Origin: a virus
Virus record (IMG/VR): IMGVR_UViG_3300036761_003567
Coordinates: 1 to 64,000 of that record
Direction: 5' to 3' (one strand)
DNA length: 64,000 nucleotides
Shown: piece by piece, positions 2,100 to 56,445 of the stretch
Position numbering within the stretch: the first letter of the stretch is position 1
How the letters are laid out: every line of letters begins with the position of its first letter
The notes under the pieces: generated by a model
What the model saw: only the letters and a program-made list of their open reading frames with translations
Database searches by the model: none
What the model was told of the DNA's origin: nothing
Made by a program: the position numbers and the translations under genes

Positions 2100-5021
2100 T
2101 TACTGTGGAACAACCACTCCGCCGGCGATCAGAACTTCCTGCGCGGTGAAGCTCTGGTCCGTCCTCATGACCACGAGGTTGAGGACGACGAATTCTGCCG
2201 CGCGCGTCGGCTTGATGAATATCGAAACCCAGAGCTCGTTGCGGTCGATCCTCTCCGGCGTGTTGTTGGTGTCGTCGCAGACGACCTTGAAGCCGTACAG
2301 GCCGCGCCGGGCCTGGACGTCCGCCAGGAGCGGCTGGGAGACGTCGACCACCTGCGCCCGGGTGAACCTGTCGTTCGGCTCGAACACGAAGTTCCGGAGC
2401 GTCCTGACCAGGATCTTCTTGAGGTAGATCAGCAGCATCCGGACGTTGACCCGATCCAGCGCGCTCGCCTTGCGCTGCAGCGTCCTCTGGCCCCAGACCG
2501 TGATCCCATCCTGCGTGAAGTTCACGATCGGGTTGACCGCGTTCCCGCTCCCGTAGAGCAGGTTCCGCTCACCGAGAGTCGTGTTGTACTCGACGTCGAG
2601 CGGGGTCAGCAGGTGGCCGCGGTTGAGGCCCGCCGGAGCGAACCACACTTCCGCGACGTTGGCCGTCTTGGCGTAGACGCCTGCCACGTGGCCCGAGGGC
2701 GGAACCCAGATGTTCTGGCCGGAGAACTGGTCGAAGATCTTCAGCCAGCTGTAGTAGAGGGCGCCGTACGAGGAGTTGATCGCGGTCGAGAGGTCGCTCG
2801 AGAGCATCCCGTTGTGCCACTCGACGACCTGCTGTGGGCGGAGGCCGTAGGGCGGATCGACGATGTAGATCATGTCGCCGCGGGACTCGCACAGCTGGAG
2901 TCCCTGGCCGATGACCGCGCCAGAGCTGATGCCCGGGATCAGCAGGATGTTGGTATCGTACTCGTCCGAGTTCTGGAAGGCGAACAGCCCACTGGAAAGG
3001 GCCGGGTTCCCGATGATGACCCGGTCCAGCTCCGAGCTGAAGGCCGAATCGGTCGGAATTCCGTTTGCCGTACCGTTGGCGCCGCTGGCACGCTCCCACT
3101 GGAAGGTGCGGCGGATAAGAGTGCCGGGGTTCCTGACCTCGAAGGCGATGCCGCCGCTGCCGGTCACGGTGACCGCCGGATCACTCCCGAGGAAGGCCGG
3201 CCGATCCTCGTAATTGTAGAACGAGCTCCCGTTCACGCCACCGATGGCGGAATTCTCGTTCACGACATTGCCGATCCAGCGCTCGTTACTCTCGTCGAAG
3301 CTGATGTTGTCGATGCTGTCCTGCGCGACTCCGGAGCCGTCGACGAGCGTCAGGACGTATTTGCCGACGTCCCCTGCCGACGCGCGGTTGGTATCGATCT
3401 GGAGAGTCAGGTAGGTCCCGTCGATCCAGGTGCCAGGCGACTTTGCCACGACCCAGCCGACGATGTTCTGGAAGTACTCGGTGTCGGTCAGGCACTGCGC
3501 GCTGCCGGGCGCCGTCTCGCAGGAAAGCGGCACAGACGGCGTGATGTTGCCGGGGTCCGGTAGTGACACGCGCGGGTCGCTGAACCCGCGGAAATTGCGG
3601 TAATACGGGTAAGGGATGCCAACCTCCTCGGCGAACCTGAGCGTCTCGATGTTGCTCGCCGAGGCCAGGAGCTGGAGGAGATCATACTGCGTATCGTCGG
3701 CGGTGATGATCGCCACCCTGACATCCCCGTCGGCCACGGTGATGGGGAAGCTCTCGTAATAGCGCATCCCGAGATAGAGCCCGGATGCGTGAATCGCAGC
3801 CGCGATCATCGCAGCCGTGACGTTGGGCCCCACAGGAAGCGAGATGCTGAAGTTATGGACGTTCGTGCCGCTGGTAACGGAGAGCTTGATCCTGTCATCC
3901 GCCGTGGTGATGACGAAGGGGCTGGGCTCGGTGCCCACCAGGCTGCTCCGGGGGATGTCATATGCCCAGAGCGAGGTCCCCACTTCGAGAGCGAACCCCT
4001 CAGTGTCGATGATCTGAATGCGGTGTCCGGCCGTCTCGGTCACGATCTGGGGAATCCCACCGGACTCAATAGCGCGGTACCGCACCGCGCTTGGCGTAGG
4101 AGCTCCAGCGGCCAGATTGAATGCGGTCACGAAGTCCGCGTTCGTGGTGTAGGAAGCGACCGGCATCGTGTAGGGACCGCCGGAGCCACCACCACTGATT
4201 CCCTCGACGGCGACGTCGAACACCCTGTTGTTGGGTGCGACGCTGAAGGTGAAGATGTCCCCGGCCTCGATCGGGCATCCGCCGACCACCAGGACGGCCC
4301 CGGTCAAGCCGGTGGCGTCGGCACCGGAACCGATGGCAAAGGCAGCCGAAGCGCCGACTGGCGCCCCAGTGTCGGTCAGCGTGCCGGTCTGAATAACTGC
4401 ACCGTCGCTGTTCCGGATGATCTGGTAGGTGGCATCCTGGACGCTCGGCGCGCCATAGGAGCCGCCAGGCCCTTCCGTGATCAGGATGATGAAGCTGTCG
4501 TCGACCGCGCCGGTGTAAGTCCCGGTGACGACCAGCGTCGCATTCACCACGCCACAGGAACCCGACGGATCCACGTCCGTGAATTCGGGGGCGGAAACAG
4601 ACGCATCGTGGAATTCGTAAGGAGCGTCCACGGTGCATTCCCGCAGACGAAGGCGACCCAGGTCGATGCCCTGGAAGAGCGGAATGCGGCCGTACCCCTC
4701 GACATTCGCACCGCTCGTGTCGATGCAGATGTCCGAAAGCTCCGTCGGCTGCCCCTGCTCGCATTCGACGCCCACGCGCAGCGTGAACATCTGGTTCCCC
4801 TGCTCGAAATACCCCAGGGCCGCGAAGCCCATGTAGGAATCGAGAATCGGGGTTCCGAAGGTGTTCACCCACTGCTCGGACGTCGACGTGAAGATAGGCC
4901 TGCCCAGCTTCCCTTTCTGGGCCGTGCCGATCATCGCCGGCATCGTAGGACCTGCGGCAGCCGGAAGCAGACTGATGTCGATCTCGCGCGGGAAGACGCC
5001 GGGGGAGAGGAATACGGGCAT
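2100..5021 (-). CDS. Contractile tail sheath protein (T4 gp18-like), 973 aa
   Basis: N-terminus FLSPGVFPREID; C-terminus VPPSG, WFAPAG.NRG, VNPI, VWGQRTL, ALDRVNVRMLL, FEPND, VVCDDTNN, IKPTRAAEF. GGAG RBS. Confidence 0.97.
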   Translation of the reverse strand: MPVFLSPGVFPREIDISLLPAAAGPTMPAMIGTAQKGKLGRPIFTSTSEQWVNTFGTPILDSYMGFAALGYFEQGNQMFTLRVGVECEQGQPTELSDICIDTSGANVEGYGRIPLFQGIDLGRLRLRECTVDAPYEFHDASVSAPEFTDVDPSGSCGVVNATLVVTGTYTGAVDDSFIILITEGPGGSYGAPSVQDATYQIIRNSDGAVIQTGTLTDTGAPVGASAAFAIGSGADATGLTGAVLVVGGCPIEAGDIFTFSVAPNNRVFDVAVEGISGGGSGGPYTMPVASYTTNADFVTAFNLAAGAPTPSAVRYRAIESGGIPQIVTETAGHRIQIIDTEGFALEVGTSLWAYDIPRSSLVGTEPSPFVITTADDRIKLSVTSGTNVHNFSISLPVGPNVTAAMIAAAIHASGLYLGMRYYESFPITVADGDVRVAIITADDTQYDLLQLLASASNIETLRFAEEVGIPYPYYRNFRGFSDPRVSLPDPGNITPSVPLSCETAPGSAQCLTDTEYFQNIVGWVVAKSPGTWIDGTYLTLQIDTNRASAGDVGKYVLTLVDGSGVAQDSIDNISFDESNERWIGNVVNENSAIGGVNGSSFYNYEDRPAFLGSDPAVTVTGSGGIAFEVRNPGTLIRRTFQWERASGANGTANGIPTDSAFSSELDRVIIGNPALSSGLFAFQNSDEYDTNILLIPGISSGAVIGQGLQLCESRGDMIYIVDPPYGLRPQQVVEWHNGMLSSDLSTAINSSYGALYYSWLKIFDQFSGQNIWVPPSGHVAGVYAKTANVAEVWFAPAGLNRGHLLTPLDVEYNTTLGERNLLYGSGNAVNPIVNFTQDGITVWGQRTLQRKASALDRVNVRMLLIYLKKILVRTLRNFVFEPNDRFTRAQVVDVSQPLLADVQARRGLYGFKVVCDDTNNTPERIDRNELWVSIFIKPTRAAEFVVLNLVVMRTDQSFTAQEVLIAGGVVVPQ

Positions 5022-6179: not shown

Positions 6180-6517
6180 TAGCTTATTCCCTGACCCTTC
6201 AGGATCTTCTTAAGCTCTTCCTTGCTCTGGAGCCTGTTCAGCACCGTCGCGAAGGGCCTCGTGCCCATCACCTCTTCCGTCTTGGCCATCATCGCGACTT
6301 CCGGGTTCGTGGCGGGGACGAAGATGGTCGCCCTGACGGCTTCCTTCTCCGGCCTCGATACGATGAATTCGGGATTTACCTTGTTGAACGAAATCTCCTT
6401 GATATCCTCAACGACTCCTATGGCGGCGGCCCGAGCAATCCCGTCCGCGCGATCGTTCACGTCGCGCCTCAGGTTGGCTTCCAATTCAGCCAGCGACTTG
6501 ACCGGGATCTTTCTCAT
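6179..6517 (-). CDS. Hypothetical structural-region protein
   Basis: Start revised to MRKIPVK, which has an ATGA overlap with the upstream stop. Confidence 0.65.
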   Translation of the reverse strand: MRKIPVKSLAELEANLRRDVNDRADGIARAAAIGVVEDIKEISFNKVNPEFIVSRPEKEAVRATIFVPATNPEVAMMAKTEEVMGTRPFATVLNRLQSKEELKKILKGQGIS

Positions 6518-26095: not shown

Positions 26096-26158
26096 GTGGA
26101 TCATATTCAGCCTCCTGGACCCGTTCCACTAAAATACGCCACGTATTTCACTTTTCAC

Positions 26159-28972
26159 ATGAGCATCACAGACGCAGACATCCAGGCGAAATTCCCATTC
26201 TCCCAGTTCCGGCCTGACCAGCTCGAGGCCGTCCGCCTCACGCTTGACCAGTTCGACAAGGGCAAGAAGTTCGTCATCATCGAGATGCCCGTAGGCGGTG
26301 GCAAGTCCGCCATTGCCTATTCCGTCGCCCAGTTCTTTGCCAATTCCTATTACCTTACGATCCAGCGCTTCCTCCAGGACCAGCTCATGGGGGACTTCGG
26401 CCAGCCGCCCAGAGATGGCCTCCTTCCGATGGTGGACCTGAAGGGCCGCGGAAACTACCAGTGCACCCATGCCCAAAGAAACGCCTTCGCTCTCGTCCGG
26501 GGACTGCTTTCGTCCCTCGGCCATCCCGATACCATAGCAAAACAGGTAGCGGAATACTTCGTCAAGAATCGGAACTTCGAGGGCCTATCCATAAAGCTGG
26601 ACTTCGACGCCGTCTCCAAGATCGTCGAGATGGTCGAGAACAAGCCGGGCTGCGATAAGGGAGTCTGCCGGACTCGGGACGGCAAATCCAGGTGCAAGGA
26701 CTGCTTCCCGAACGGCCTTCCAGCGCTGTGTCCTTATTGGGCTAGGAATGCCCAGGCCCAAGCCGCCCAAATCTGCCTCATGAACTTCCGGGTGTTCCTC
26801 CACCAGACGGTCCTGACGAACGCCTTCGGCCACCGGGATCTGATGATCGTGGATGAGTGCTTCCACCCGCACACGAATATCGTAACCGACAGAGGAAGAA
26901 TCCCCATCGGCAAATTAGTGAACAAAAGAATTGATTGTTCTGTACTGTCCTATAACAAAAAGCTTCAAAAGCTCGAATTCAAGCCAATATCCCGCTTCTT
27001 AAAACGAGGAAAGCGACCAACTTTTAAAGTGATTGCCGGGAACAGGGTGATGTACCCAACAGCAGACCACAAGATCCATACGCCAAATGGCCTCAAGAAA
27101 CTCTGCGACCTTCGTGTCGGCGATTTGATCATCGTAAACGAACCAGAAATCTCCCACACACAACAACAAATCCTCCTTGGATCGTTATTAGGTGATGCGT
27201 CAGTACAAATAGTCCCATCGAAAAGGAAATCGTGGAAATATGCCCCCAAAGGGGCAAGAGCCCGAGTTCGATTCGTCCACAGCTCAAAACAGCTTACTTT
27301 CCTGCGTTGGAAGTACAATATTCTGAAGGAACATGTAAATACTGGCCCCAAGATTTTTAAAAGTAAGGGGTTCTCAAAACGTGTCGCACGATTCAACACA
27401 AAGTGCAACATGTTTGAACAAATTAAAGTCGTAATCCGGAACCACAAGAAAACTCCCAACAAAGCATGGTTCCAGAAAATAGAAGACCTTGGATTGGCTG
27501 TATGGTTTATGGACGATGGGTCTTGCAACAGAAACACAATCCACCTTCACACAGAAGGATATACCTTACAAGAAAATCGAAAAATTGCCTTCTGGCTGCG
27601 GGAAACTCTCGATATCCCAGCTAAGGTTCTGTCATACTGCAAGCGCGACCATGTGCTGTACTATATTACGCTTGGTAGAAGTGGCAGCAGGATCTTAGCA
27701 CAAAAGATAGCCAGGTTTATACCACCATTCATGCGATACAAGCTACCCAGTGGACAGTGGGATCCTTATAACCCAGAACTGGAAGTCAAAAGATCAAAGC
27801 CAGTTAGCGCACAGCCCGTCTTCTCTATTAACCCATACAAGGAAACTGTCACGTACGATCTAGAAGTAGCAGACAACCATAATTATTTTGCCGGTTCTAG
27901 CCTCGTCTCCAATTGTCATCAAATGGAATCGGAGCTGATGAACTTCATCGGCTTCAGCCTGAATGACAAGTCGCTCCGAGAATACGGCATCGTCCTGTCC
28001 GAGATGGGCTCCGCCGCCGAGTACGCAAGGTTCCTGAAGGATAAGGACATCCTGGCCGTCATCGAGAACATACTGAAGATGGCGCGCGCGGCCGGAGACC
28101 TTGAGAAGGAAGACGAGTGGATGGACATCGAGAGGCGGTGCGGGCACTTCCTCGCAACGGCCGAAGACGGTAACTGGGTCGCCCTCTTCAAGGATACGGA
28201 CCAGAGGAAGAAATACAAGGTCATCTGGAACACGGTAGAACTCAAACCCGTCTATGTCCGCAAGATGGCCCACGACTTCGTGTTCAACAGGGCGGACAAG
28301 GTCCTCATGATGAGCGCCACGGTCCTGTCGGCGAAGACGGTCTGCTCATCCCTGGGGATCGAAACGAATGACATGTACGCCATCCGGTACGGAAGCCGCT
28401 TCCCCGTCGAGAACCGCCCGATCTTCTTCACGCCGGTAGGTTCACTCAGCTATAAGAACAAGGCGGAGACCCTGCCCAAGATCGTGCCGGCCGTCGACAA
28501 GATCCTGAATAAGTATAAGGGCAAGAAGGGCATCATCCACACGCACAACTTCGAGATTGCCAGGTTGCTGATCAGCGAGTGCGAGACCAGGGACCGCATG
28601 CTCTTCCAGGAGGATTTCGAAAACAAGAAGGAAATGCTCAAGGAGCACGCCGAACGCGAGGACTCCGTAATCGTAGCTCCCGCTATGCACGAGGGGCTGG
28701 ACCTGAAAGACGAGCTCAGTCGCTTTCAGATCATTGTAAAGATGCCGTACCCGCCGATCAAGGGAAACCCACAGCTTGAAGCCCGGATGCAAGACTCGCA
28801 GGAATATTATGACTGGCTGACGGCTCTCAAGCTGGTCCAGGCAACGGGCAGGTCAGTGAGGTCAGAGACGGACTGGGCGCACACTTATATCCTGGATGCC
28901 GATTTTGAATGGTTCTTGCGAAAGGCTCGTGGAATTCTGCCGAAGTGGTTCAAGGAAGCGATCAGGACCTAG
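26159..28972 (+). CDS. DinG/Rad3-like SF2 helicase containing an intein
   Basis: Q motif RPDQ, Walker A PVGGGKS, Cys cluster, DE|CH after splicing, MSAT, EGLD, Q.TGR.VR. Start revised to ATG 26159. Confidence 0.9.
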   Translation: MSITDADIQAKFPFSQFRPDQLEAVRLTLDQFDKGKKFVIIEMPVGGGKSAIAYSVAQFFANSYYLTIQRFLQDQLMGDFGQPPRDGLLPMVDLKGRGNYQCTHAQRNAFALVRGLLSSLGHPDTIAKQVAEYFVKNRNFEGLSIKLDFDAVSKIVEMVENKPGCDKGVCRTRDGKSRCKDCFPNGLPALCPYWARNAQAQAAQICLMNFRVFLHQTVLTNAFGHRDLMIVDECFHPHTNIVTDRGRIPIGKLVNKRIDCSVLSYNKKLQKLEFKPISRFLKRGKRPTFKVIAGNRVMYPTADHKIHTPNGLKKLCDLRVGDLIIVNEPEISHTQQQILLGSLLGDASVQIVPSKRKSWKYAPKGARARVRFVHSSKQLTFLRWKYNILKEHVNTGPKIFKSKGFSKRVARFNTKCNMFEQIKVVIRNHKKTPNKAWFQKIEDLGLAVWFMDDGSCNRNTIHLHTEGYTLQENRKIAFWLRETLDIPAKVLSYCKRDHVLYYITLGRSGSRILAQKIARFIPPFMRYKLPSGQWDPYNPELEVKRSKPVSAQPVFSINPYKETVTYDLEVADNHNYFAGSSLVSNCHQMESELMNFIGFSLNDKSLREYGIVLSEMGSAAEYARFLKDKDILAVIENILKMARAAGDLEKEDEWMDIERRCGHFLATAEDGNWVALFKDTDQRKKYKVIWNTVELKPVYVRKMAHDFVFNRADKVLMMSATVLSAKTVCSSLGIETNDMYAIRYGSRFPVENRPIFFTPVGSLSYKNKAETLPKIVPAVDKILNKYKGKKGIIHTHNFEIARLLISECETRDRMLFQEDFENKKEMLKEHAEREDSVIVAPAMHEGLDLKDELSRFQIIVKMPYPPIKGNPQLEARMQDSQEYYDWLTALKLVQATGRSVRSETDWAHTYILDADFEWFLRKARGILPKWFKEAIRT
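26858..27913 (+). mobile_element. Intein with LAGLIDADG homing endonuclease (352 aa)
   Basis: Starts CFHPHT; block B TADH; LLGSLLGDA and LAVWFMDDG; ends YDLEVADNHNYFAGSSLVSN followed by Cys+1; AT-rich. Confidence 0.93.
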
Positions 28973-32768: not shown

Positions 32769-34226
32769 TTACGGTTGAGGCGTGGTAGACGACGACGTTG
32801 AAGATGAACTCGAAGTTGGCCTTCGTGTCGAGGACGAGGATGAGGTCCTGTAGCTCATGCCGCTACCCGAAGTATAGCTTCCGCCCTTTTCAACGAACGC
32901 AGGAATGACGGCGCCCCTTTCCGGAGGTATGAAGTCGCCCTGGATGCCGCAGGGCCCGTCGCCCACGTTCGGGCACCAGAAGAATTCCGCCTGGCAGCAT
33001 TGTTCCGGCGGCGGCGGGTCCAACAGGATCTCGAATGGGAGCGGCGTCTCGGCATTCGTAAACCAGTCGAACGTGAAGGACTGATAGTGTGCCAGGTCGA
33101 CGCAGCAGGATGCTGGTTGCCAATTCGGCAGATCCAGGGGCGGCGGCGTGAAGTCAGGCGGCGCGAAGAGGAACGACCAGATCGGCTTGCAGGACTTCAT
33201 GGTTACGGCAACGGCACAGAAGAGCGCTTCCCGGATGCCGCCAATGGGCATCGAATTAGACGATGGCGAGAGGTCGCTGACGCAGATGTCCCTCGGAAGC
33301 GTAGCCTTGACGAGGTACATCGTGCTCGAGATGGGCGATTTCCGCATTGATATGACGGCAGAAGTCGCCTTGATCGAGGCGTCATCAAAGAAACTCGTAA
33401 CGACTTCCAGGAAGCGAGTTCCGTCCTGTCCCGCCTGCCCTTTTGCGCCCTTCTGTCTTGCCTTAAACCGCCAGTCAGTCAGATTGCCGATATTACCCGT
33501 GAGCTTGACGGTTCCAGTAACGGCCCCCGTGGCGAAGATGAGGTCGCTCGAGGGATCAACGCCGATTGTCTCATCAACGACATTCACGGTAGAACCGGTT
33601 CCGCCGAGTGGTACCACGAATTCAATTGCGTACTCCGAAGCCTGACCTGATCTGAACAGCCTAACCGAAATGTCGGTTTCGATAGGCGTACCAACTAGCG
33701 CGTCGATCTTGATCGTATCCGGCTGTACGAAGACTGGCGTCTGGAATTCTTCGGGCGCCGCCGGCGTTCCGTCCTTCCCCGCGTCGCCTTTCTCGCCCTT
33801 TGGACCCTTGCATCCCACGCAGCAGCGGCTCATAACATTGTGGAAGAGCCGTGCCTTATCGACCTCGATGCGGAGGTTGGTGGACCCGTCGTCCAGCTTC
33901 TCTACGGTGAAGGCAATGAGCCTGTCGGACGAATAGAAATAGTAATAGTACGGTGAGGCGCTGTCCGTCCTGATCTTGAAGGCTTCGAAGGACGTGCCCC
34001 CTTTGATGAGATCCTGGACGAGCTTCAACAGCTTATAGATGTCGGGGGAGACGAGGCCGGATTCCTGCTCGGTGACCACCTGAAACGCGCGCAGGAGACC
34101 CCTTGCGTTCCAAGTCTTCGTGGAGCCGTTATACTCGAAGATGTTCCCGAAGAGGTCGGCTATTGCGTCGCCGTCCTTCGGACTGAGGGGCAGCTTCCGT
34201 ACGAATGGTGGATAAATGGCAGTCAT
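32769..34226 (-). CDS. Collagen-repeat protein with Ser/Thr-rich tail (putative virion fibre or decoration)
   Basis: GCKGPKGEKGDAGKDG and GAKGQAGQDG; CC pairs; C-terminus TSSSSSTRRPTSSSSSTSSSTTPQP. Confidence 0.7.
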   Translation of the reverse strand: MTAIYPPFVRKLPLSPKDGDAIADLFGNIFEYNGSTKTWNARGLLRAFQVVTEQESGLVSPDIYKLLKLVQDLIKGGTSFEAFKIRTDSASPYYYYFYSSDRLIAFTVEKLDDGSTNLRIEVDKARLFHNVMSRCCVGCKGPKGEKGDAGKDGTPAAPEEFQTPVFVQPDTIKIDALVGTPIETDISVRLFRSGQASEYAIEFVVPLGGTGSTVNVVDETIGVDPSSDLIFATGAVTGTVKLTGNIGNLTDWRFKARQKGAKGQAGQDGTRFLEVVTSFFDDASIKATSAVISMRKSPISSTMYLVKATLPRDICVSDLSPSSNSMPIGGIREALFCAVAVTMKSCKPIWSFLFAPPDFTPPPLDLPNWQPASCCVDLAHYQSFTFDWFTNAETPLPFEILLDPPPPEQCCQAEFFWCPNVGDGPCGIQGDFIPPERGAVIPAFVEKGGSYTSGSGMSYRTSSSSSTRRPTSSSSSTSSSTTPQP

Positions 34227-34426
34227 CAGTTTATCTTTTCAGGGACCAGTTCGAGCGTCCATCCCTTCTTGCGGCAATAGTCCTCGACCTGGCTTATCTG
34301 CCATCCGATCATGTACTTGACGATAGGCGGGGCTCTATGGACGACTTTATCTACCGAGATGCCAGCAGTGAAGTGAGGAGCCAGGATGCGGCACAGCACA
34401 AATACACGCCTCCCCCTCATCCGCAT
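34226..34426 (-). CDS. Small hypothetical protein
   Basis: APHF.AG...APPI.KYM.GW....V..YC.KKGW pattern; start uncertain. Confidence 0.6.
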   Translation of the reverse strand: MRMRGRRVFVLCRILAPHFTAGISVDKVVHRAPPIVKYMIGWQISQVEDYCRKKGWTLELVPEKIN

Positions 34427-34437
34427 GGGAGAAAGGC

Positions 34438-35080
34438 AGGATAAGAAAATCCTATCCCGCGAAAGACGTGAGAAGAGGAGCTGGCGCGGGATCTGATGAG
34501 GAGCCCAGGATGGCCCAGGCTATGTTCCCATTGTCCCCTCCGTACATGCGGCCACATGGTCCCAATGTGCATCGCACCAGTGGGTTTGTTCGGCCTGTAC
34601 GGCGCCAGCTCTTCTTCGTCACGTCCAGTTCTCCATTACGACCTTCAGGAAGGACAGTTGCCTCATGGCTTCCAGCAGCCGCCATGAGGGCAGTCCAGCC
34701 ATCCAGCCGACGGATGTCGCACTTCACGGTGGGACCCGTATTCCCGGCCACCATGACTCGGCAGAGGCCCTATCCGCAGCTCCCGCTGCAGGAGCTCTTC
34801 CATGCGTGCTGTACCGGGCTATGAGGCATTGAGTTCGCCCGGGGGCCTCCGTCCTGCCGAGATTCTACGATGCCGTCGTGGCAAAGGACCCGTCGCTTGA
34901 ACCGGCTTGTCAAGGTCAAGCCCACGCTGGCTTACTCCGTCGGTCTCATTCCACCGACATCTTTCAGCCAGCGCTCTTGTCCGCACTCCTCTGACCGGGT
35001 CGCGGGCGGACATGGAACGTTTTGGAAACCTGCCGCTTTCGCCCTCTTGTGGCAAATGCCCTTTTCTGGCGGCGGCGTCT
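34438..35080. ncRNA. Candidate large structured non-coding RNA (about 640 nt)
   Basis: No credible ORF; near-continuous nested stems including a roughly 23-bp long-range helix 34465-34487/34602-34625. Strand unresolved. Confidence 0.65.
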
Positions 35081-35129
35081 CTTATATACGTTTACACCGG
35101 CTACCCGCTTCCTCTCGTATTTCATCAAC

Positions 35130-35747
35130 ATGAAGGTGGAAGAACTCAAGTTTGGCGCGAAAGCCAAGGTCGTTAAGACGCTAGATGGCCTATCAGATAA
35201 AAGAAGATCTTCGTTTATAGGCCAAATCGGAGTCATCGTTGGCTTCTTTGCCCTAGATAACGCCATCGATAAAAAGACGAGATTCTCCGTCTCCCTGCGA
35301 TTTGATAACTCCTTAGGCATTGAAGAGTTCGATATGTGTGAGCTCGAACTAGATGCCGGTCCAGATGCCCTAATAAAAGCGATTGCAGAATTGGGCGGAA
35401 TCGAACAGAATAATAAGGTTTTCGTCGATGTGGCCGGTAAAGGCGATACGACGACAATTTCGAATGCTCTTGAGATAGTCCAGACTCAGCCATGGCTGGC
35501 CAGCGGAGCAATCCAGCCCATCGGAATAGCAGCTCAGCCCATCAAGCCAGGCGAGAGCGGATTCGTGAAGTTATTCGGCACTTTTGCAGAGGAGACGGAC
35601 CCTGAGAAATTAAAGAAAATGTCTGACCAATTCGGCTACGCAGGGGCTGTCGGCATCGACGGATTCGGCAACCCGATCGTCATCCCTCCGAAGCGTCCAC
35701 AGAAAAATAAGCCAGGCGAACTCGGGGAGAGAAAAGTCGAGGCATGA
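35130..35747 (+). CDS. Hypothetical protein
   Basis: Start revised to MKVEELK, 5 nt after GTATTTCA. Confidence 0.7.
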   Translation: MKVEELKFGAKAKVVKTLDGLSDKRRSSFIGQIGVIVGFFALDNAIDKKTRFSVSLRFDNSLGIEEFDMCELELDAGPDALIKAIAELGGIEQNNKVFVDVAGKGDTTTISNALEIVQTQPWLASGAIQPIGIAAQPIKPGESGFVKLFGTFAEETDPEKLKKMSDQFGYAGAVGIDGFGNPIVIPPKRPQKNKPGELGERKVEA

Positions 35748-35748
35748 C

Positions 35749-36030
35749 ATGCTTGGATGGTTATGGCGAAAGATAGTGGGGCAGCCAAGGCCTCTAGAGG
35801 TCAAGCTGACGCTCAATATTCCGCAAGGCGTCATCCACGTGAGGCATCACTTTGATAGAGAAGGATCCGCGGCTCAAAAGGCAGCGATACGACCAGGACC
35901 TGGGAATTCCCAAGGATCTATGGCCGATCCTTCTGCCGGAACCCGCGCGGAAGACTTGCCGATCGAATCGCTCTTCAAAGGCCAGAACCTCCCCGAAGTC
36001 CAGCTCGGCCAAGACACCGACGGCAAGTAA
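35749..36030 (+). CDS. Hypothetical protein
   Basis: GAGG RBS; adjacent to the upstream stop. Confidence 0.6.
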   Translation: MLGWLWRKIVGQPRPLEVKLTLNIPQGVIHVRHHFDREGSAAQKAAIRPGPGNSQGSMADPSAGTRAEDLPIESLFKGQNLPEVQLGQDTDGK

Positions 36031-36262
36031 GCCAGCACCAATAAGTATTTCAGATCCGATAACAAGAGCCCTGAAAGCCGAGGGCTGGACTCCTGGGAAT
36101 CTCAAGGTCATAAAGGACAGACACTTCGTACCGAAAAGCAAGATCGTAAAGGACAGGGAGAGGCAGGAACTCGTAAAGAAGACGGCTTATCTGATCACGA
36201 AGCCGCCGAGAGGCTTTGCAGAATATCAGAAGAACGTAGAGACCATTTTCAGGAGCGGTACG

Positions 36263-37267
36263 ATGGAACGCCTAGGACTTGATATGGGGACGAAGAACAT
36301 CGTCCTCGCCTATAAGAAGGACGGGCAGGTCTGCTTCCGTCGAGAGGTCAACGGATTCATTTCCGTGGTCAAGCAGGATAACTTCACCAAGGAAATGCTC
36401 GTCCAGTCGCAGGTTCCCTTCATCGAGCGGGACAAGGACTTTATCGCCATCGGCAGCAAGGCGGAGGACCTGGCCTACTCGTTCGGTAAGGAGCTCCAGA
36501 GACCGATGGTCAATGGAGTGCTCTCGGTCACTGAGCGGCAGGCGATGTCCATCATGGGCGTCATCGTGAAGTCCATCATCGGGAAGCTCAACGACGACGC
36601 CATCCTGTGCTACTGCATCCCAGGCCTGGCTATCAACCAGGACGTGAACGTCGACTTCCACAACAAGGTCATCCAGGCGATCCTGGCGTCCTTCGACGTC
36701 AAGGTCAAGCTCAAGGGAAGCTCGATCAACGAGGCACGCGCCATCGTCATCGCCCGCTCGCCGGACAAGGACAAATCCGGGATCGGCATCTCTTGCGGCG
36801 CCGGGATGATCAACATTTGCTACTGCCTCTTCGGCATTCCGGTCTACGAGTTCTCAATCGTCGGGGCCGGCGACTGGATCGATAAGGAATCCGGCAAGGC
36901 AACGAACGAGAGCCCCACGGCCATCGCCAAGGTCAAGGAGTCGCCAGAGACGCGGCTGGATGGCGGGATGCCCGCGGACTTCGTCCGCAGGGCGATCTTC
37001 CTGAACTACACGATCCTCATCGAGAGGATCGCCAAGAGCATCGCCGAGGGCTTCCGCAAGAACGAAGGCAAGGCCAGGGCGCCGAAGCCCATGCCCATCT
37101 ACATCGCCGGCGGGACTGCCTCCGTCGGCGGCTTCCTCGCGCTCTTCAAGGAAGTCTTCACGAAGCAAGAGATGCCGTTCCAGGTCGGCGAGATCTCGCT
37201 CGTGGACAAGCCGCTCTACGCAGTCGCCGAGGGGTGCCTCATCGCAGCCGAGAAGCACGAGGGATGA
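36263..37267 (+). CDS. Actin-fold ATPase (MreB/FtsA/ParM superfamily)
   Basis: GLDMGT (phosphate 1), RPM..G, INEARA (connect 1), ISCGAGM (phosphate 2), GAGDWID, AGGT..VGGF (adenosine), AVAEG. AGGAG RBS before ATG 36263. Confidence 0.85.
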   Translation: MERLGLDMGTKNIVLAYKKDGQVCFRREVNGFISVVKQDNFTKEMLVQSQVPFIERDKDFIAIGSKAEDLAYSFGKELQRPMVNGVLSVTERQAMSIMGVIVKSIIGKLNDDAILCYCIPGLAINQDVNVDFHNKVIQAILASFDVKVKLKGSSINEARAIVIARSPDKDKSGIGISCGAGMINICYCLFGIPVYEFSIVGAGDWIDKESGKATNESPTAIAKVKESPETRLDGGMPADFVRRAIFLNYTILIERIAKSIAEGFRKNEGKARAPKPMPIYIAGGTASVGGFLALFKEVFTKQEMPFQVGEISLVDKPLYAVAEGCLIAAEKHEG

Positions 37268-37461
37268 AAATCGTCCGTACTCATTGCGGAATGGCCCTGT
37301 GCCTCATTCGTATGGCCGAAAATGAGGCACGAACGGGGAGAAAGGCCATATTCATCTCGAAAGAGGCGTCCCTCGGACGGATGCGCGATTTCACGATCGC
37401 GGGAGGACAGCCGGTCCCCGGCGGGGAGGAGTCCGGGCCGGAATCCGTAGGTAGCCAGTGA
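37264..37461 (+). CDS. Small hypothetical protein
   Basis: ATGA overlap with the actin-like gene stop. Confidence 0.45.
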   Translation: MKIVRTHCGMALCLIRMAENEARTGRKAIFISKEASLGRMRDFTIAGGQPVPGGEESGPESVGSQ

Positions 37462-37528
37462 TTGCGCTGGCCTGATTGAGCGCCCCGAATCCGGCCATCC
37501 GTCCGAAGGACGCCTACTTGGGTGATGC

Positions 37529-38878
37529 GTGGCAGACCCGACTGACCGAGACAAGCAAATCGAGGCGGCCGAGAAGGCCTACCCAGGCCCGAAGGACTTC
37601 GTCCACCTCCATTCTCATTCCGTATTCTCGCCATTGGACGGCCTTCCTGATCCTGAGGATTACGCCAAGGAATGTCAGCTCCGCGGATTCCCTGCTATGG
37701 TCCTGACGGACCACGGCAGCATGGGAGGAATTCCGGATGCCTATCTGGCTGCAAAAAGCGCGAAGGTAAAGTTCATCGCGGGCTGCGAGATCTACTTCAA
37801 CGACAAGCACCTCGAGTGGGCAGAGAAACAGAAGCTCGGTATTTCTATCGGCACCATCAAGGCGCAGGACGCAGAACTACGCGACGAATATGTCCGCAAC
37901 AGGCACGTGACCGTGCTTACGAAGAACATGGCCGGCTACAGGAACCTGGTCATGATGCTCACGAACGCCTGGGAAATCGGGCATTATTACAAGCCCAGGA
38001 TCTGGCTGGACATCATGAAGCAGCACCAGGAAGGTCTAATCATCCTGTCCGGGTGCCTGAATGGCCCTATCTGTCATTATCTCCGGAAGGATAATACGAA
38101 GAAGGCGATGGAGTACATCAAGAAGTTCAAGGACATCTGGGGAGATGACTATTACCTCGAAGTCCAAATGCCTGGTAAGGAAATCCCGGACGGCGTAAAG
38201 ACCTTCATCAAGCTCATGACCATCGCGAAGTCAGTAGGCTTCAAGGCAGTCCTGACGAACGATACGCATTACCTGAGGCGGGAGGACTTCCAGGTCCAGA
38301 AGCTCATGATGGCCATCGACCAGAAGCTGAGGGTCGATGACCCGAATCTCTTCCACGTGAATTCGGACGAGCAGTTCTATAAGACGCGGGCGGAACTAAG
38401 GCAGACTTTCCAGGAACAGGGGTACGCCTATGGCGGACACATTACCCTGAAGGACTTCGAAGCCGCCTGTGATAACGCGCTAGAGGTCGCCCAGAAATGT
38501 GAGGGCTTCAAGCCGGACACGAGCCTGAAGCTTCCGGAAGTGCCCGACGCGGATAAACAGCTCGTCGCCCTGACGCTCCAGGGGCTCCGCCGGATCAATA
38601 AGCATGAAGATGAGGTCTACGTCGCCCGTGCGAAGCGGGAACTCAAGATGATCATCGAGAAGGGCTTCAGCTCTTACTTCCTCATCACGCGGGATCTGAT
38701 CGCCCACTCAAGGAGCCTTGGCTTCGAAGTGGGGCCTGGTAGAGGCAGCGTGGGAGGCTCGCTCGTGGCGTATCTAATCCAAATAACGACGATAGACCCC
38801 ATCGTATTCAAGCTCAATTTTGAAAGGTTCATCAGCCCGTCGCGCGGCGGCAACCTCCTTAGGGTGACCATGTCATGA
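37529..38878 (+). CDS. dnaE: DNA polymerase III alpha, piece A: PHP domain plus first palm segment
   Basis: FVHLHSHS, TDHG, GCEIY, YYKPRI, LSGC, TNDTHY, GPGRGS.GGSLVAYL.IT.IDP, FERF..P.R; stops before PDID. Confidence 0.9.
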   Translation: MADPTDRDKQIEAAEKAYPGPKDFVHLHSHSVFSPLDGLPDPEDYAKECQLRGFPAMVLTDHGSMGGIPDAYLAAKSAKVKFIAGCEIYFNDKHLEWAEKQKLGISIGTIKAQDAELRDEYVRNRHVTVLTKNMAGYRNLVMMLTNAWEIGHYYKPRIWLDIMKQHQEGLIILSGCLNGPICHYLRKDNTKKAMEYIKKFKDIWGDDYYLEVQMPGKEIPDGVKTFIKLMTIAKSVGFKAVLTNDTHYLRREDFQVQKLMMAIDQKLRVDDPNLFHVNSDEQFYKTRAELRQTFQEQGYAYGGHITLKDFEAACDNALEVAQKCEGFKPDTSLKLPEVPDADKQLVALTLQGLRRINKHEDEVYVARAKRELKMIIEKGFSSYFLITRDLIAHSRSLGFEVGPGRGSVGGSLVAYLIQITTIDPIVFKLNFERFISPSRGGNLLRVTMS

Positions 38879-39492
38879 CACAGGGTGCCATTGCTCTGAC
38901 ATCCGTGCCCCGAGACGAAATTGTGGCCATCAAGGCCCTCCTGGGTCAGGCCGTATCGACGCTCCGCGTCCTGACGATCCTGATCGGAAGCCCGAAGGAC
39001 TCCCCGAAAGAGAACGCGACCAAGATGGTCGGGCTCCTAGCCGTGTGGCCAGACATCGCGGACGAGTTTGCTGACGTCGTCCTCCAGCGGACCACCGTCC
39101 CAAACAACGCGGGTCAGACGACGCACAAGCTCATGCGCCGGATCGCGGATATCACGCTAGAGCCTCTAAAGGCTGCATTCGACGTCCTCCGCGACAGATA
39201 CAAGGACAGCCCTATCGTCGTCACTACGAACGACGAGCTCAAGACGAAGATCCTTTCGGCGCAATTTCCGACGCCGGAAGGACTGGTAGAGCCATTCGTC
39301 GATCGGGAGACCGACGGGTATCCTGAGGCGACTTCCGGCGTGCAGACCGTCGAGTCCGTCCGGAACGTACGCAGAGCCTATCTGGAAGCCATCGCCCGTG
39401 TCGTCCTCTGGGGGACTAGCAAGGATCCCCTAAAGGCGAACGAGGATGCGAGGCCGGCCTACGACGAGATCATGAAAGAGGTGAGAATATGA
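38875..39492 (+). CDS. Hypothetical protein
   Basis: Coupled on both sides. Confidence 0.75.
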   Translation: MTQGAIALTSVPRDEIVAIKALLGQAVSTLRVLTILIGSPKDSPKENATKMVGLLAVWPDIADEFADVVLQRTTVPNNAGQTTHKLMRRIADITLEPLKAAFDVLRDRYKDSPIVVTTNDELKTKILSAQFPTPEGLVEPFVDRETDGYPEATSGVQTVESVRNVRRAYLEAIARVVLWGTSKDPLKANEDARPAYDEIMKEVRI

Positions 39493-39929
39493 GCTTGAAG
39501 CCGATGATCTATCTGGCTGCCTTCTCGACTACGGGTAAGTCTCCGGTGAATGGGAAGGTGGACACTGGCGTAGCCGTCTGCGTAAAGGCCGAAGACGAGA
39601 CCAGGACGTGGCTTCTGCCATTCTGGTCGGCGACGATGAACCAGGCGGTGCTCATGGGGTTGAGGTTCGGCATCTTGGCGATCAATCCCAGGAACCGCGA
39701 CTTCCTCCAAGTTACCACGGATAGTCAATATCTCGGGAACGTGCTGGCGAAGAAGGGAGACAAGTACGGGTTCAATCCGGACTCGAACGTCGAGCTCATC
39801 AAAGAGGCACGCGACCTTTGCGCTACCGCAAAGGATATGACATGCTTGGTGTGTAAGACTGACGTACTCATCGCCGAGCTCCGTGAGAAGATTCGCGTGC
39901 TCGGCAAGAAGAGGCTGGCGAATGTCTGA
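39489..39929 (+). CDS. RNase HI-like fold protein, probably inactive
   Basis: T.NQA.L.G..., VTTDSQYL, N.EL; first Asp and the Glu are replaced. Confidence 0.5.
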   Translation: MSLKPMIYLAAFSTTGKSPVNGKVDTGVAVCVKAEDETRTWLLPFWSATMNQAVLMGLRFGILAINPRNRDFLQVTTDSQYLGNVLAKKGDKYGFNPDSNVELIKEARDLCATAKDMTCLVCKTDVLIAELREKIRVLGKKRLANV

Positions 39930-40308
39930 TTGGCAGAAGATCGCCGAATTCGCGCGCAAGAAAGTTGCAACGCTTTCCAAGGAGCATGCGACCCGGCTTG
40001 AATTCGAGATCAAGGAAATAGACAAACAGGGCGCGAACGACTACTGGATAAACCTGCTGAAGTCCATGCAGAAGTTCGAAGCGAACACCAACGGCCTCGT
40101 CCTTCCATTCCTCCTGGGCATCACGCCGGTCGACCCGGTCGATTGTGAATATGTTTTCAAAATTGATGAGACTGGTGAAGAAGATGATATTATGCGGCTC
40201 GTGCTAGACAATGGTAAGACAATATCGGTACCATCACGAGCGCTGATTAAGACGATAAATGGACCCATAATCGCGAAAGATTTGAAAGTTGAAGATGAGC
40301 TGACGTAA
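39922..40308 (+). CDS. dnaE: DNA polymerase III alpha, piece B: palm N-segment plus IntN-like tail
   Basis: RLEFEIKEI..QG...Y...LV..LLGITPVDP then Hint-like RLVLDNGKTISV......TING...AKDLKVED. Start revised to MSDW. Confidence 0.7.
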   Translation: MSDWQKIAEFARKKVATLSKEHATRLEFEIKEIDKQGANDYWINLLKSMQKFEANTNGLVLPFLLGITPVDPVDCEYVFKIDETGEEDDIMRLVLDNGKTISVPSRALIKTINGPIIAKDLKVEDELT

Positions 40309-41157
40309 AGTTGTCACATGTTTTAAATCTCTCTCTGTCATAACGCCAAAAGAATGGCGTTTTTTTGAGCACCACCGGCGTAATGCGGGTAATTTTCTCT
40401 TGCAAGATAGCCACATTGCGACACCCATGCGGTCTAAATTATTAGGTTTCTTGCCGGATATATATTTAGAATACTTTATTTCAATGATTAGGCGCTTATT
40501 AATCAGTAAATCTGGGACCATGAAGAATTCATTGCACTCTATTTGTAATGGTTCGTATCTTAGCGAGTGGACATCGCCTAATGATGCAAGAAGTTTTACG
40601 GCCTTCGCTTCCAGGGATGACTTAACTCTAAAAAGACCAAATCTGGTACGTATCGTTTGCACACGCGGCGATGTGGCAACGTAGTGCAAAGCGCTTATCT
40701 TTGACAAATGCTTTCTGTAATCGCCATAACGCATGTTGAGCGTGGCAATTCTTTTCCTGTTTGATTTTGGATTTTGAATAGAATACGCAACGCCGTAACG
40801 CTTCCGATGCGTCTTAATTATTCTCTCCCAAACGCCTGGTAGTTGAGTGTTGTGCGTAACGCCCAAATGTTCTTTTAGGGATTGCCGATAACGCGCATAC
40901 CCGGATTTGCTCTGCATGTAGTGCTCAGAGCCGTACCGTGACTTAAAAGTTCGCCTTCTATGGTCATCTATCTGTTTGTATATAGTCCTTTTGTCCTTAC
41001 AAATTCCATGCCTCTTCAAGGCGCGAACAACAGATGAGGTGCCGCATCCGACTCTTTCTGCTATCTGTATCTGTGAGAGGTTTTGGTCGACATACGCGTA
41101 TTTCAGATATGAAGAATTGAGCCTCTCACGCAAAGTTGACGTGGATTTTCTACCCAT
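40234..41157 (-). mobile_element. Free-standing PD-(D/E)xK (TnsA-N-like) homing endonuclease, antisense within dnaE
   Basis: N-terminal HTH, RYG repeats, SSLE...YEP...PDLLI...IEIK...TE.DL; AT-rich; TCAAATATA just upstream. Confidence 0.75.
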
Positions 41158-41169
41158 GGGGTATATTTG

Positions 41170-43403
41170 ATGAAGATTGTTAAGATAAACATCATTCGAG
41201 GGAATGTCCGGAAAGTCAGCGGTGGTGCCTATAACGCCAGCGGGATCACGGTCCTACCACAAGTCGGAATCCCGCACCGCGTTGAGTACCACGCTGACCT
41301 TCCGGACATATAGATGTGGATCTCCAGCCTGCCGCACGCCCCCTTATTAGGCAGTACGCCACAAAGAAATATGGGATGGAGAATGTCTGTAGCGTAGGCC
41401 TCTGGCAGACCTACAACCCAAAGCTCGCCTTGCAGGATGCGGCTCGGGCACTCGGAGCTGACCATCACGAAATCCTGAACATAACCAAGGAGCTTCCGGA
41501 AGACTTCGATGAAATGTCCAAGGAGGACGCACTCAAGGAGTTCGACGAGCTAGCCACTTACTATAAGGCGAATCCACACATCGTCGACATGGCTTATCGG
41601 ATCGTCGGCCGCATCAAGACGCAGGGCCGGCACGCCGGAGGCCTCATCATTTCGTCCGTCCCCATCAGGGAATATGTGCCCCTGATGAAGCTCGGCGGCG
41701 TGGAGTGGACGACGGCCTGGACCGAGGGCAAGAACACGCAGCTCAGCAAATTCGGCTTCGTCAAATTCGACATGCTCGGACTCAAGACGATCCAATACAT
41801 CGCCAACGCCTTGAAGCTCATCGAACAGAACCGCGGCGTCAAGATCGATTGGGAGAAGATCCCGCTGGATGATAAGGATACGCTTGCGCTTGCGGCCAGC
41901 CTGAAGACGGATTCGACGTTCCAATTCGATACGGATCTGGCCAAGAGTATCATCCTCCGCGGCGGCGTCAAGAGCTTTAACGATCTGATGGTCTATACGT
42001 CACTCGGCCGCCCCGGCCCCATGCCGCTTATTGAGAAATACGTAGAGCGGCGTGACGATCCGAAACAGACATGGCGGAATGAAATTCATCCGAAGCTGGC
42101 GGAAATACTTGGAGAAACGTTCGGCGTCTGCGTCTATCAAGAGCAGCTCCAGCAAGTCTGGATCGACGTCTGCGGCTTCACATTCGCGGAGGCAGAAGAG
42201 GCCCGCAAGATCATCGCCAAGAAATGGCAGGACAAGCTACCTGCACTCGGCCAAAAGGTCGTGAAAGGCGCGGTCCGATTGTTGGGCGGCAAGAAGGCGG
42301 AAGAGCTCTGGCAGACCATGGTCACCTTCGGCCGCTACGCCTTCAACATGGCTCACGCGACGGCTTACACTATCATTGCCTACCGGACGCTCTGGCTGAA
42401 GACGCATTACGCCCCGGAATGGTGGGCCGCCGTCATGTCGGACTGCGGTCGGGACAGGCTCGTCCGGTACATCGGGATCGCAAAGTCGGAAGGCGTTCAA
42501 CTGGGGACCCTCGACTGCAGGACGCTCACAGAGAGCTTCACGGTCTCGGGCGACAGAGTGCTGCCAGGCCTCAACCTGGTCAAGGGCATCGGCACGTCCT
42601 CCAAGAAGCTTGCGGAGAACAATGCCGACTACAAGTCCGTAGACGAATTCATCGAGAAGAACGGGAAGGGGCGCATCGTCATGGAGCGCCTCATTAAGCT
42701 AGGCGGCTTCGATAAGATCTTCCGGAACAGGAAGACGCTCTGGCTCTGGTATCTCTGGAAGCACGCCGGCGAGAAGCAGACGAAGGACCTGGTAAAGGCC
42801 ACGTTCGCCTGGCCGGAGAATCGCGTCGTCGCCGAGAGGCAGAAGCAGATCCAGGCCTTCAGAAAGCTTTACCCCAAGAAGAAAGTGCCGCCGAAGCTGG
42901 AGAACTGGAACCCGAAGATCGATCCGACGTTCGAGGATTTCGCCAAGAAGTTCAACGAAGACTTCATGGACCGGGAAATCCTAGCCTTTGAGAAGGCTCA
43001 TCTCGGGTTCTACTGGTCATCTCCTATGAGCCAGTTCGTGCACAAGAACCTGACAATAGCCCAGGCCAAGTACTCGAATAACCTGGAATGCGTCATCGAC
43101 TCTATTACCACGAAAAAGTCCGAGAAGACCAAAAACGAATATCTGAAGCTCACGATTACGGACGGCATCGAGACGGCGCCGCTCGTCGTCTGGTCCGATG
43201 CCTTGTCTGACAAGACGAACGCCGAGGCGCTTGCCGTCGGCGGAGGCATCTCCGTAAAGGTAGCCTGGTCAGACAAGTACAGGAGCTTCTCCATAGCTTC
43301 AGGGTCCATGATCATCCCGCTCATCAAGAAGGGGCTCGAGCCAGACGCGCCGGTTCTACCTGCCCCGGATGAATTAGAGGAAGCTTATGCTGCTGACGAG
43401 TAA
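41170..43403 (+). CDS. dnaE: DNA polymerase III alpha, piece C: IntC-like head, catalytic palm, fingers, HhH, OB; frameshifted at 41308-41313
   Basis: 41170-41313 reads MKIVKI...ADLPDI*; the +2 frame continues DVDLQP..., with RHAGG, KFDMLGL, RPGP, VYQEQ, YAFN.AHA..Y, LK.HY.PEW, KGIG. Confidence 0.85.
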
Positions 43404-49304: not shown

Positions 49305-49750
49305 ACAGACGATCTCTTTTAAAAGCCCTCACACTCCTCCCATTTGCACCCCTGCTCGGACGCAAGACAGAAGCAGCCATTCCGAATGGAGAAGACGACC
49401 TAGCCTATTGGCGGCGCATTCCGAATGGAGAAGACGACCTAGCCTATTGGCGGCACAAAGTAGAGCATTGCGAATCGATTGGGGACCATAAGAAGGCAGA
49501 GCTTTACCGCAGGAGACTGCTGCTCGCCGAGGACGTCGCTCTAATCCACGACATCCAACGGGCCAGAAATGGTCGGAAATTCTCTATGCACGTGGAACGT
49601 GTTGGTCGGGAAACTCTTTGCGTCACGATTCCAGCCGACCTATCGCCCCAGGAGGCCGTGAAGTATCTCGATTCCATAAAGAGACACTTTCGAAAAGTTG
49701 GGTGTCGCAATGCACGACGAGGTCTGGCACAAGCATATCTATTTAGCTGA
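49301..49750 (+). CDS. Tat-signal-like protein with a portal-like C-terminal segment
   Basis: Start revised to MNRRSLLKAL (GGAG RBS, ATGA overlap); LLLAED.ALI..I.RA...R.F...L.P.EA..YL..IK..FRK. Confidence 0.55.
   Translation: MNRRSLLKALTLLPFAPLLGRKTEAAIPNGEDDLAYWRRIPNGEDDLAYWRHKVEHCESIGDHKKAELYRRRLLLAEDVALIHDIQRARNGRKFSMHVERVGRETLCVTIPADLSPQEAVKYLDSIKRHFRKVGCRNARRGLAQAYLFS
49378..49454 (+). repeat. In-frame 39-bp tandem duplication
   Basis: CATTCCGAATGGAGAAGACGACCTAGCCTATTGGCGGC twice, encoding IPNGEDDLAYWR twice. Confidence 0.95.
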
Positions 49751-53514: not shown

Positions 53515-53550
53515 GCCGTATTTCACGGAGAACCATTAAAGGAGGAAGTC

Positions 53551-55792: not shown

Positions 55793-55851
55793 CGAGCCAG
55801 CTCCCACTGGCTTGACCTAGCTGGCCCGCAGGTTCGTGCTTGCGGGCCAGC
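55793..55851 (+). other. Tandem stem-loops in the intergenic region
   Basis: 55793-55800/55807-55814 and 55820-55831/55840-55851; no U-tract. Confidence 0.55.
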
Positions 55852-55875
55852 AGCGTATATAAGTCAGGGTGAACA

Positions 55876-56445
55876 ATGGGTAATTCGTGGAAAGTCGCTG
55901 AGCGAAAAGTAGCCCGTCTCCTGGGTAAGTGGGCTTGTGGAAATGAAGATGCCCTCCGCCGGATGCCCCTCCAGGGGCGCATGATGGAAGAGTATCTCGG
56001 CGACATTATAGTAAACGAGGCGGCTCCGGAAGATGTCCGAAAGAAAGGCGCCGCCTTCCTCAGCAAGTTCATGATCGACGTCAAGAAGAGGATAACCAAG
56101 CAGAGCGCTACGGGATGGCATTTCGAGCAGTTTCTGACCAGTCCGAAGCACCAAATATTTGCCTGGTGGCGAAAACTCGAGGGAGCGGCAGAGAAGTACC
56201 AGAAAATGCCACTTCTGATCATTACCAAAGGGGACAGAAACTGGTTTATATTGGTAGATGAAAAATTGTATGGTAGGGTCAAAGTCAGAAGGCAGGGTCT
56301 AATGCCGAATTCCATCACTATTAAGTGCCTGGAAGCAAAGACACTTATGGCAATGAATCTCTTTGACTTCCTGAAGATACCCGTGGAGGCCATATGGCCT
56401 GTGGAGCCTGCGGCAAGCGCCGAGAGCAGCAAGGCGCAAGCGTAG
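55876..56445 (+). CDS. Holliday-junction resolvase-like PD-(D/E)xK nuclease
   Basis: G...ER.VA..L..W, GDI, IDVKK, WW, PLLI. Confidence 0.6.
   Translation: MGNSWKVAERKVARLLGKWACGNEDALRRMPLQGRMMEEYLGDIIVNEAAPEDVRKKGAAFLSKFMIDVKKRITKQSATGWHFEQFLTSPKHQIFAWWRKLEGAAEKYQKMPLLIITKGDRNWFILVDEKLYGRVKVRRQGLMPNSITIKCLEAKTLMAMNLFDFLKIPVEAIWPVEPAASAESSKAQA

Follow-up and report, generated by a model that had tools for sequence, protein, structure and literature searches.

A conserved, densely paired non-coding block of a huge phage, possibly the leader RNA of a leftward operon

Long untranslated RNAs of phages and plasmids are known in several forms. The late leader of lambdoid phages is the pR'-tR' 6S RNA of about 200 nt, which works with Q antitermination, and ColE1 RNA II and T4 oriF/oriG are origins that use a primer RNA or an R-loop. 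Large RNA classes such as GOLLD, ROOL, OLE, HEARO and raiA are 500–800 nt in size and contain many nested helices, some of them being phage-borne, and the block described here is like them in these respects. To our knowledge, huge phages are known almost only from metagenomes, and next to nothing is known of their origins, promoters and regulatory RNAs. The present locus offers three handles on them, namely a candidate for a phage-specific promoter motif, an origin-proximal locus that is conserved beside an actin-like gene in several huge-phage genomes, and a slowly evolving block of about 650 nt that belongs to no known family.

The source record is a 107,223-nt IMG/VR virus contig, and its first 64 kb, hereafter the window, is the stretch of DNA that was analyzed. 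CheckV rates this 107,223-nt contig as 29% complete, and it therefore belongs to a huge tailed phage; the genes include those for a tail sheath protein, an intein-bearing helicase, RecA, a DnaB-like helicase, a gp32-like protein and a split DnaE. The gap at 34400–35129 separates two divergent gene sets, with the 57-aa and 485-aa genes leftward and the 205-aa, actin-like and DnaE genes rightward. An earlier note on this DNA had described the largest ORF-poor gap of the window here, and 34400–35129 is indeed its longest stretch without a credible gene. The flanking genes are as follows.

32769–34226, minus strand: 485-aa gene with a short collagen-like run, assigned to no family
34226–34399, minus strand: 57-aa gene, codon score +0.29; its cluster members are 57 aa long and the 57-aa form is in the ESM Atlas
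35130–35747, plus strand: clade-specific 205-aa gene with its ATG at 35130, codon score +0.30
35852–37267, rightward set: actin-like gene of the Volactin family (PF25216)

The stop codon of the 57-aa gene overlaps the start of the 485-aa gene (ATGA). Neither the 57-aa nor the 205-aa protein gave a significant Pfam or PHROG match or a lead in the ESM Atlas, and the AlphaFold model of the 205-aa protein was unusable (pLDDT 34). The 485-aa gene is the neighbor of the actin-like gene in every relative (six loci, L013–L018). The two genes may diverge or run in the same direction, and a GC-skew minimum is always found within 2 kb of the pair, which suggests that they form an origin-proximal cytoskeletal module of these huge phages.

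Several other features of the rightward region were observed. Between the actin-like gene and DnaE is a 260-nt gap with an inverted repeat (37364–37392/37487–37515) whose 29-nt arms are 83% complementary; the repeat region 37364–37515 is about 93% conserved in the homologous locus L009, and the preceding 95 nt are not alignable. DnaE (DNA polymerase III alpha) is split into an N-terminal part with the PHP domain (37529–38878) and a C-terminal part (41316–43403). The intervening 2.4 kb or so (38879–41315) carries three small genes on the plus strand and, on the minus strand, one of low GC (40234–41157), the product of which has a weak match to a TnsA-like endonuclease fold (E 9.8e-4, below the Pfam cut-off), and this insert looks like a mobile insertion. 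Another inverted repeat, with 18-nt arms (41204–41221/41292–41309), lies just before the C-terminal part. In addition, the helicase gene (ResIII / Helicase_C_2) at 26096–28972 on the plus strand contains an in-frame intein with a LAGLIDADG homing endonuclease.

One metagenome scan yielded three homologous loci, L007, L008 and L009. L007 is near-identical over the whole locus, with zero differences in the core, and is uninformative. The differences from the other two are listed below.

Core block 34402–35045 against L008: 11/644 differences, 1.7%
Core block against L009, which starts at 34745: 2/301 differences, 0.7%
Four-fold sites of the 485-aa gene, L008: 21/107, 20%
Four-fold sites of the actin-like gene, L009: 41/210, 20%
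Four-fold sites of the 57-aa gene, L008: 7/18, 39%
Four-fold sites of the N-terminal part of the 205-aa gene, L008: 9/19, 47%
Codon positions 1 and 2 of the 485-aa gene, L008: 10/438, 2.3%

Since the flanking four-fold sites differ at 20–47% and the core at only 11 of 644 positions, the core must be under strong constraint. By this comparison, the block evolves approximately 10- to 25-fold more slowly than the neighboring synonymous sites, and at least as slowly as the replacement sites of conserved proteins. On the left, the conserved block is bounded by the start of the 57-aa gene, and on the right the constraint relaxes from 35046 onward.

Searches for more distant homologues were carried out in several collections. 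BLAST against GenBank phages found no match to the block, and nothing was obtained from IMG/VR with protein-anchored scans (two flanking proteins and an alignment) or with exact-pattern scans for the block. A scan of GTDB genomes gave only two chance matches, in Akkermansia MAGs, without similarity in the flanks. The homologue check proposed in the earlier note was answered in part, as near-identical loci came from the separate metagenome scan, but nhmmer gave no match under E = 2 in the remainder of the contig, in six loci of relatives or in two complete relatives. The element is known only from a narrow clade, in a handful of metagenome contigs that are nearly identical.

We examined whether the gap could encode a protein. 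ORFs of 100–118 aa exist in it, but their codon usage is non-coding: in a codon-usage model trained on 47 long ORFs of the same phage, real genes scored +0.27 ± 0.18 and all the gap ORFs fell between -0.04 and -0.23. Because of these scores, the called 36-codon 'N-terminal extension' of the 205-aa gene is regarded as conserved DNA and not as protein. None of the eight gap ORFs is found in a collection of 15 billion proteins, in which the small flanking gene is present, and they are not called in any collection. Conservation of a codon pattern in one of the short ORFs, which the earlier note had named as a sign against an RNA, was not seen, as all 7 of the L008 substitutions within the 118-aa (plus) and 100-aa (minus) ORFs change the amino acid in both frames and show no 3-periodicity. 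A 1-nt deletion at 35054 is also tolerated among the homologues. It is true that both of these ORFs remain open in L008 and that only TGA codons interrupt plus frame 0, but an alternative code is opposed by the long genes elsewhere in the window, which read through under code 11, and we regard a hidden gene of any of these kinds (the plus ORF, the minus ORF or one in another genetic code) as extremely improbable. A mobile element was ruled out, as there are neither terminal repeats nor other copies. The region 34400–35076 is non-coding DNA under strong purifying selection.

The dense pairing described earlier was well borne out by the folds. All 12 helices that had been listed are complementary (12/12), the longest of them (34465–34487/34602–34625) having 22 Watson-Crick pairs and two bulges, and the fold beats dinucleotide shuffles on both strands (z = -4.63 for plus and -4.44 for minus). 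When 320 windows of the same length from the phage's own genome were used as the control, with regression on GC, the minus-strand fold was at -3.1 SD, the second most extreme of the 320, and the plus-strand fold was unexceptional (-1.2 SD). The minus-strand ensemble is well defined (centroid -294.5 vs MFE -314.6 kcal/mol) and that of the plus strand is diffuse (-232 vs -293 kcal/mol). The lean of G-U pairs towards the plus strand, which the earlier note had reported, was not reproduced, since G-U accounts for 12 of 213 pairs in the plus-strand MFE structure vs 25 of 216 in that of the minus strand. The strongest helices are Watson-Crick on both strands and would therefore also form in DNA. Outside the window, the minus strand of the contig at 81.8–85 kb (L010/L011; GC 0.66–0.70, several gaps of 120–540 nt) is also among the most stable folds of the genome (-2.3 to -3.5 SD) and has no Rfam match.

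The positions of the substitutions were compared with the two folds in a permutation test, in which the 17 L008/L009 substitutions were placed randomly at positions with the same base.

Minus-strand fold: 4 substitutions in pairs (10.9 expected), P = 0.0002; 2 breaking a pair (7.3 expected), P = 0.0024
Plus-strand fold: 7 substitutions in pairs (10.6 expected), P = 0.05; 4 breaking a pair (5.5 expected), P = 0.24

RNAalifold on the minus strand gave 224 pairs, of which one terminal pair was broken and three had one-sided changes that kept the pair (C-G to U-G, U-G to U-A and G-C to G-U). Compensatory double changes were found in 0 of the 224 pairs, the homologues being 98–100% identical and too similar to show covariation. 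The minus strand is, in addition, purine- and G-rich (skew +0.09), like the sense strands of the genes of this phage. Taken together, the minus strand is favored over the plus strand as the RNA strand. The predicted parts of such a leftward RNA, from its 5' side, are these.

35046–35076, minus strand: predicted 5' end, more variable in relatives, with eight L008/L009 differences
35076–35032, minus strand: 5' hairpin domain predicted from the fold
34400–35045, minus strand: core block of 646 nt, non-coding and densely paired
34979–35011 and 34925–34973, minus strand: two predicted hairpins
34754–34870, minus strand: predicted multi-branched domain
34774–34791, minus strand: predicted 7-bp hairpin with a GGGA (GNRA-type) tetraloop, within the multi-branched domain
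34661–34689, minus strand: predicted hairpin
34465–34625, minus strand: long hairpin domain with an outer helix of about 24 bp, two bulges and branched inner helices
34436–34460, minus strand: predicted 11-bp hairpin, immediately preceding the ribosome-binding site of the 57-aa gene
34418–34409, minus strand: Shine-Dalgarno stretch GAGGGGGAGG of the 57-aa gene, inside the conserved block

All eight differences in 35046–35076 are in loops or change G-C to G-U in the minus-strand fold. The long hairpin of 34465–34625 ranked fifth among the 13 inverted repeats listed for the window (arms no more than 300 nt apart). The hairpin at 34436–34460 is followed by CCUUUCUCCC, which is not a U-tract, and was not scored as a terminator. 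The GUG start of the 57-aa gene (34399–34397) comes nine nt after GAGGGGGAGG.

These results bear on whether the block could be a functionless spacer, near-identical through a recent recombination patch and rich in helices through its GC-rich sequence. The phages are mosaic and divergence along the locus is strongly variable, four-fold divergence being low, for example, in the first third of the actin-like gene (5/67), and the unexceptional plus-strand fold would fit as well. The right end of the block, however, is kept in at least three further lineages in which the 205-aa protein is only 48–69% identical, which argues against a single recent patch, the mosaic genomes notwithstanding. The block boundaries also match functional landmarks (the 57-aa gene start and the predicted RNA start), and the extreme minus-strand fold and the avoidance of its helices by substitutions both speak against a spacer, which we consider very unlikely. 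The feature is real and looks functional.

The right edge of the gap carries two promoter-like motifs back to back. They belong to a family, CGTAT[AT]T[ACT]A, with 15 copies in the 107 kb, 12 of them intergenic in a genome that is 13% intergenic; all 12 are upstream of the adjacent gene and point to it, at 5–682 nt. Column-shuffling the motif 400 times gave 2.0 hits on average and never more than 4 intergenic ones. The copies in the window are as follows.

26130–26138, minus strand: motif copy
26142–26150, plus strand: motif copy
35090–35082, minus strand: CGTATATAA, family member that points into the block
35116–35124, plus strand: CGTATTTCA, family member 5 nt before the ATG of the 205-aa gene
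41097–41105, plus strand: motif copy
53517–53525, plus strand: motif copy
55854–55862, plus strand: motif copy

The translation of CGTATTTCA is conserved in the called 'N-terminal extensions' of all relatives. The earlier note had drawn attention to a promoter-like 10-mer, CGTATATAAG, and both copies are present, on the minus strand at 35090–35081 and on the plus strand at 55854–55863, where it precedes a plus-strand gene by 13 nt. The second copy by itself is not significant, as about 0.2 would be expected in 2 × 107 kb, but the 10-mer does belong to the over-represented family. Judging from its distribution, the family is probably a phage-specific promoter element; the distant relatives G002 and G003 show no enrichment of it (2–4 per 100 kb). 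No copy points rightward into the block, and a scan for sigma-70 promoters and intrinsic terminators found nothing on either strand. In several cases only 5–14 nt separate the motif from the start codon, which suggests mRNAs that are leaderless or nearly so. Directly upstream of the CGTATATAAG copy and the gene at 55876, a GC-rich plus-strand hairpin (55820–55853, GCTGGCCCGCAGG...CTTGCGGGCCAGC) was observed, which may be the terminator of the preceding gene.

The best explanation, to which we give a little less than an even chance, is that the block serves the leftward operon as a giant structured 5' leader or RNA. Transcription would most likely run leftward from the motif at 35090–35082 and, from the spacing of motif and ATG at the other copies, would start near 35076, giving an untranslated and highly base-paired minus-strand RNA of presumably about 680 nt. 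The transcript would continue through the ribosome-binding site and GUG start of the 57-aa gene, with which the block is continuous, and then into the translationally coupled 485-aa gene. Such a leader could control expression of the leftward operon, its putative target, and might also be processed to a stable RNA, for which the helix of about 24 bp is a plausible site for a double-strand-specific RNase. The start region of the 57-aa gene could be occluded, because its Shine-Dalgarno stretch is mostly paired in the predicted ensemble (mean paired probability 0.80 for GAGGGGGAGG, with several alternative partners, none dominant).

In silico, the motif is upstream, no credible ORF or terminator lies between, and the block is contiguous with the ribosome-binding site; as there is no terminator between the two, a very long 5' leader is the simpler reading. 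Against it, 682 nt is by far the longest distance from motif to gene, the other eleven intergenic copies being at 5–303 nt, and a promoter nearer to the 57-aa gene is a possible alternative. In addition, the near-complete conservation of about 640 nt exceeds what a simple leader usually needs. Should the block prove to be a leader and nothing more, its length and its degree of constraint would still be unusual.

The earlier note had proposed a new large ncRNA or ribozyme, and its statement that hallmarks of tmRNA, RNase P and introns are lacking agrees with Rfam 15 and ARAGORN, which matched none of them. At gathering scores, Rfam gave nothing in the window or the rest of the contig, where tRNA and tmRNA genes are also absent, and at E ≤ 10 the region 34200–35300 had no GOLLD, ROOL, OLE, HEARO, group I or II intron, RNase P or tmRNA. 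Hammerhead_II (RF02276) scored 18.8 bits at 34457–34509 on the plus strand (E 0.7), far below its cut-off of 37 and hence not a member, and the matching segment belongs to the long helix in both folds. Nothing indicates a ribozyme. What stands of the proposal is a non-coding, structure-prone and constrained block that matches no family; a ribozyme signature was not found, and a free-standing status was not supported. A trans-acting large RNA or ribozyme of a new class, either cut from the leftward transcript or ended at the hairpin of 34436–34460, would account for the size, the dense pairing and the well-defined minus-strand domains, and conservation equal to or above that of codon positions 1 and 2 of conserved proteins is expected of a tertiary fold. 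We nevertheless think it unlikely, since neither a terminator nor a processing signal can be demonstrated, the next gene's ribosome-binding site follows on from the block without a break, and the clade is narrow, the block being absent from L013–L018, the two complete relatives, the GenBank phages and the IMG/VR scans. Unlike GOLLD, ROOL, OLE, HEARO and raiA, it has no covariance-model match at E ≤ 10 and no neighboring tRNAs, and its distribution is very narrow.

A structured replication origin was the other possibility raised earlier, to be checked by GC skew. Cumulative GC skew for locating origins in complete metagenome-derived phage genomes is discussed in PMC7111523. For the 107-kb contig the cumulative skew is V-shaped, with its global minimum at 35129, the last base of the gap. 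This gives positional support to an origin and is confounded by the switch of gene orientation; because the minimum coincides with that switch, it is no proof. Related loci were collected from IMG/VR by anchoring on the actin-like gene (L013 is G001 and L017 is G003), and the block is absent from all of them (L013–L018). The syntenic locus, within 2 kb upstream of the actin-like gene, is nevertheless the global skew minimum in the complete genome G003 (168,977 of 320 kb) and in the fragment G001 (at 6,374), and a near-global local minimum in the complete 395-kb G002 (at 177,294). At the syntenic site of L013 (4044–4246) there are six 20-nt iterons, three direct and three inverted, with AT-rich spacers, and they adjoin a 165-aa minus-strand gene (4270–4767) with a weak lambda-O-like match (phrog_678, E 1.4e-3; HTH_36, E 0.22). 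In L017, 16 tandem copies of TTTTAATC (4210–4345) are located exactly at the skew turn of the complete 320-kb genome. The shared minimum and these origin-like repeats at the syntenic site therefore make the locus a good candidate for the replication origin of the family, and in the present phage the block and the clade-specific 57-aa and 205-aa genes occupy the place of the relatives' repeat modules.

The block could accordingly be considered as part of the origin, either as a structured DNA element or as the template of an RNA made from a promoter, which opens or primes it, and in this clade it would then replace the iteron-plus-initiator module of a relative. Together with the 85-nt promoter region, it is the only non-coding DNA near the skew minimum, and the G-rich RNA-like strand would be in keeping with such a role. 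On the other hand, iterons, tandem repeats and a cluster of DnaA boxes are absent from the block, as is any AT-rich stretch (GC 0.61), no initiator gene was recognized nearby with Pfam and PHROG, and the origin could instead be in the 85-nt promoter region. This role is the main rival of the leader reading, and we judge it possible but rather unlikely. A classical iteron-type origin in the gap was rejected, as the gap has neither direct repeats nor an AT-rich region for unwinding, and no recognized initiator gene adjoins it. A search of the contig for RNase H was negative, which is uninformative for a contig that is 29% complete. Elsewhere in the window, a perfect tandem duplication of 39 nt (two copies, 49378–49454) was observed in the gap of 455 nt that immediately precedes the DnaB-like helicase gene (49760), and it could be a second replication-related site.

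The leader reading and the origin reading may also be combined. The leftward structured RNA might itself be the origin element, having replaced the iteron and initiator module as a primer of the RNA II type or as an R-loop activator, and a single ultra-conserved transcript would then couple firing of the origin to the expression of the adjoining operon beside the actin-like gene, although we hold this to be improbable. If the block were an RNA with a role in trans or in replication, it would define a new class of large functional RNAs and illustrate the replacement of an origin module.

Compared with known systems, the leader reading is closest to the lambdoid late leader and other long operon leaders of phages, in that an untranslated transcript lies between the promoter of a long operon and its first gene and provides a place to gate expression. 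The block differs from the lambdoid leader in its length (about 680 nt vs about 200 nt) and in being conserved over its whole length, and no intrinsic terminator or Q-like factor was found. With iteron origins that use a lambda-O-type initiator, the block shares the syntenic position of the L013 array and the same GC-skew signature, but it lacks the repeats, the AT-rich unwinding region and the neighboring initiator gene. In comparison with ColE1 RNA II, no RNA–DNA switch point, equivalent of the antisense RNA I or RNase H was identified, and, unlike the ColE1 and T4 origins, the block runs into a gene and not into an origin, a replication role being suggested by position. The likeness to ColE1 RNA II and T4 oriF/oriG lies in the promoter several hundred nt from the replication-related site, the long, untranslated and folded transcript, the G-rich RNA-like strand and the genome skew minimum. 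A transcript of this type is long, untranslated and highly folded, and its sequence must therefore be kept. By analogy, a transcript-dependent origin in the style of ColE1 RNA II or T4 oriF/oriG would reconcile both sets of facts.
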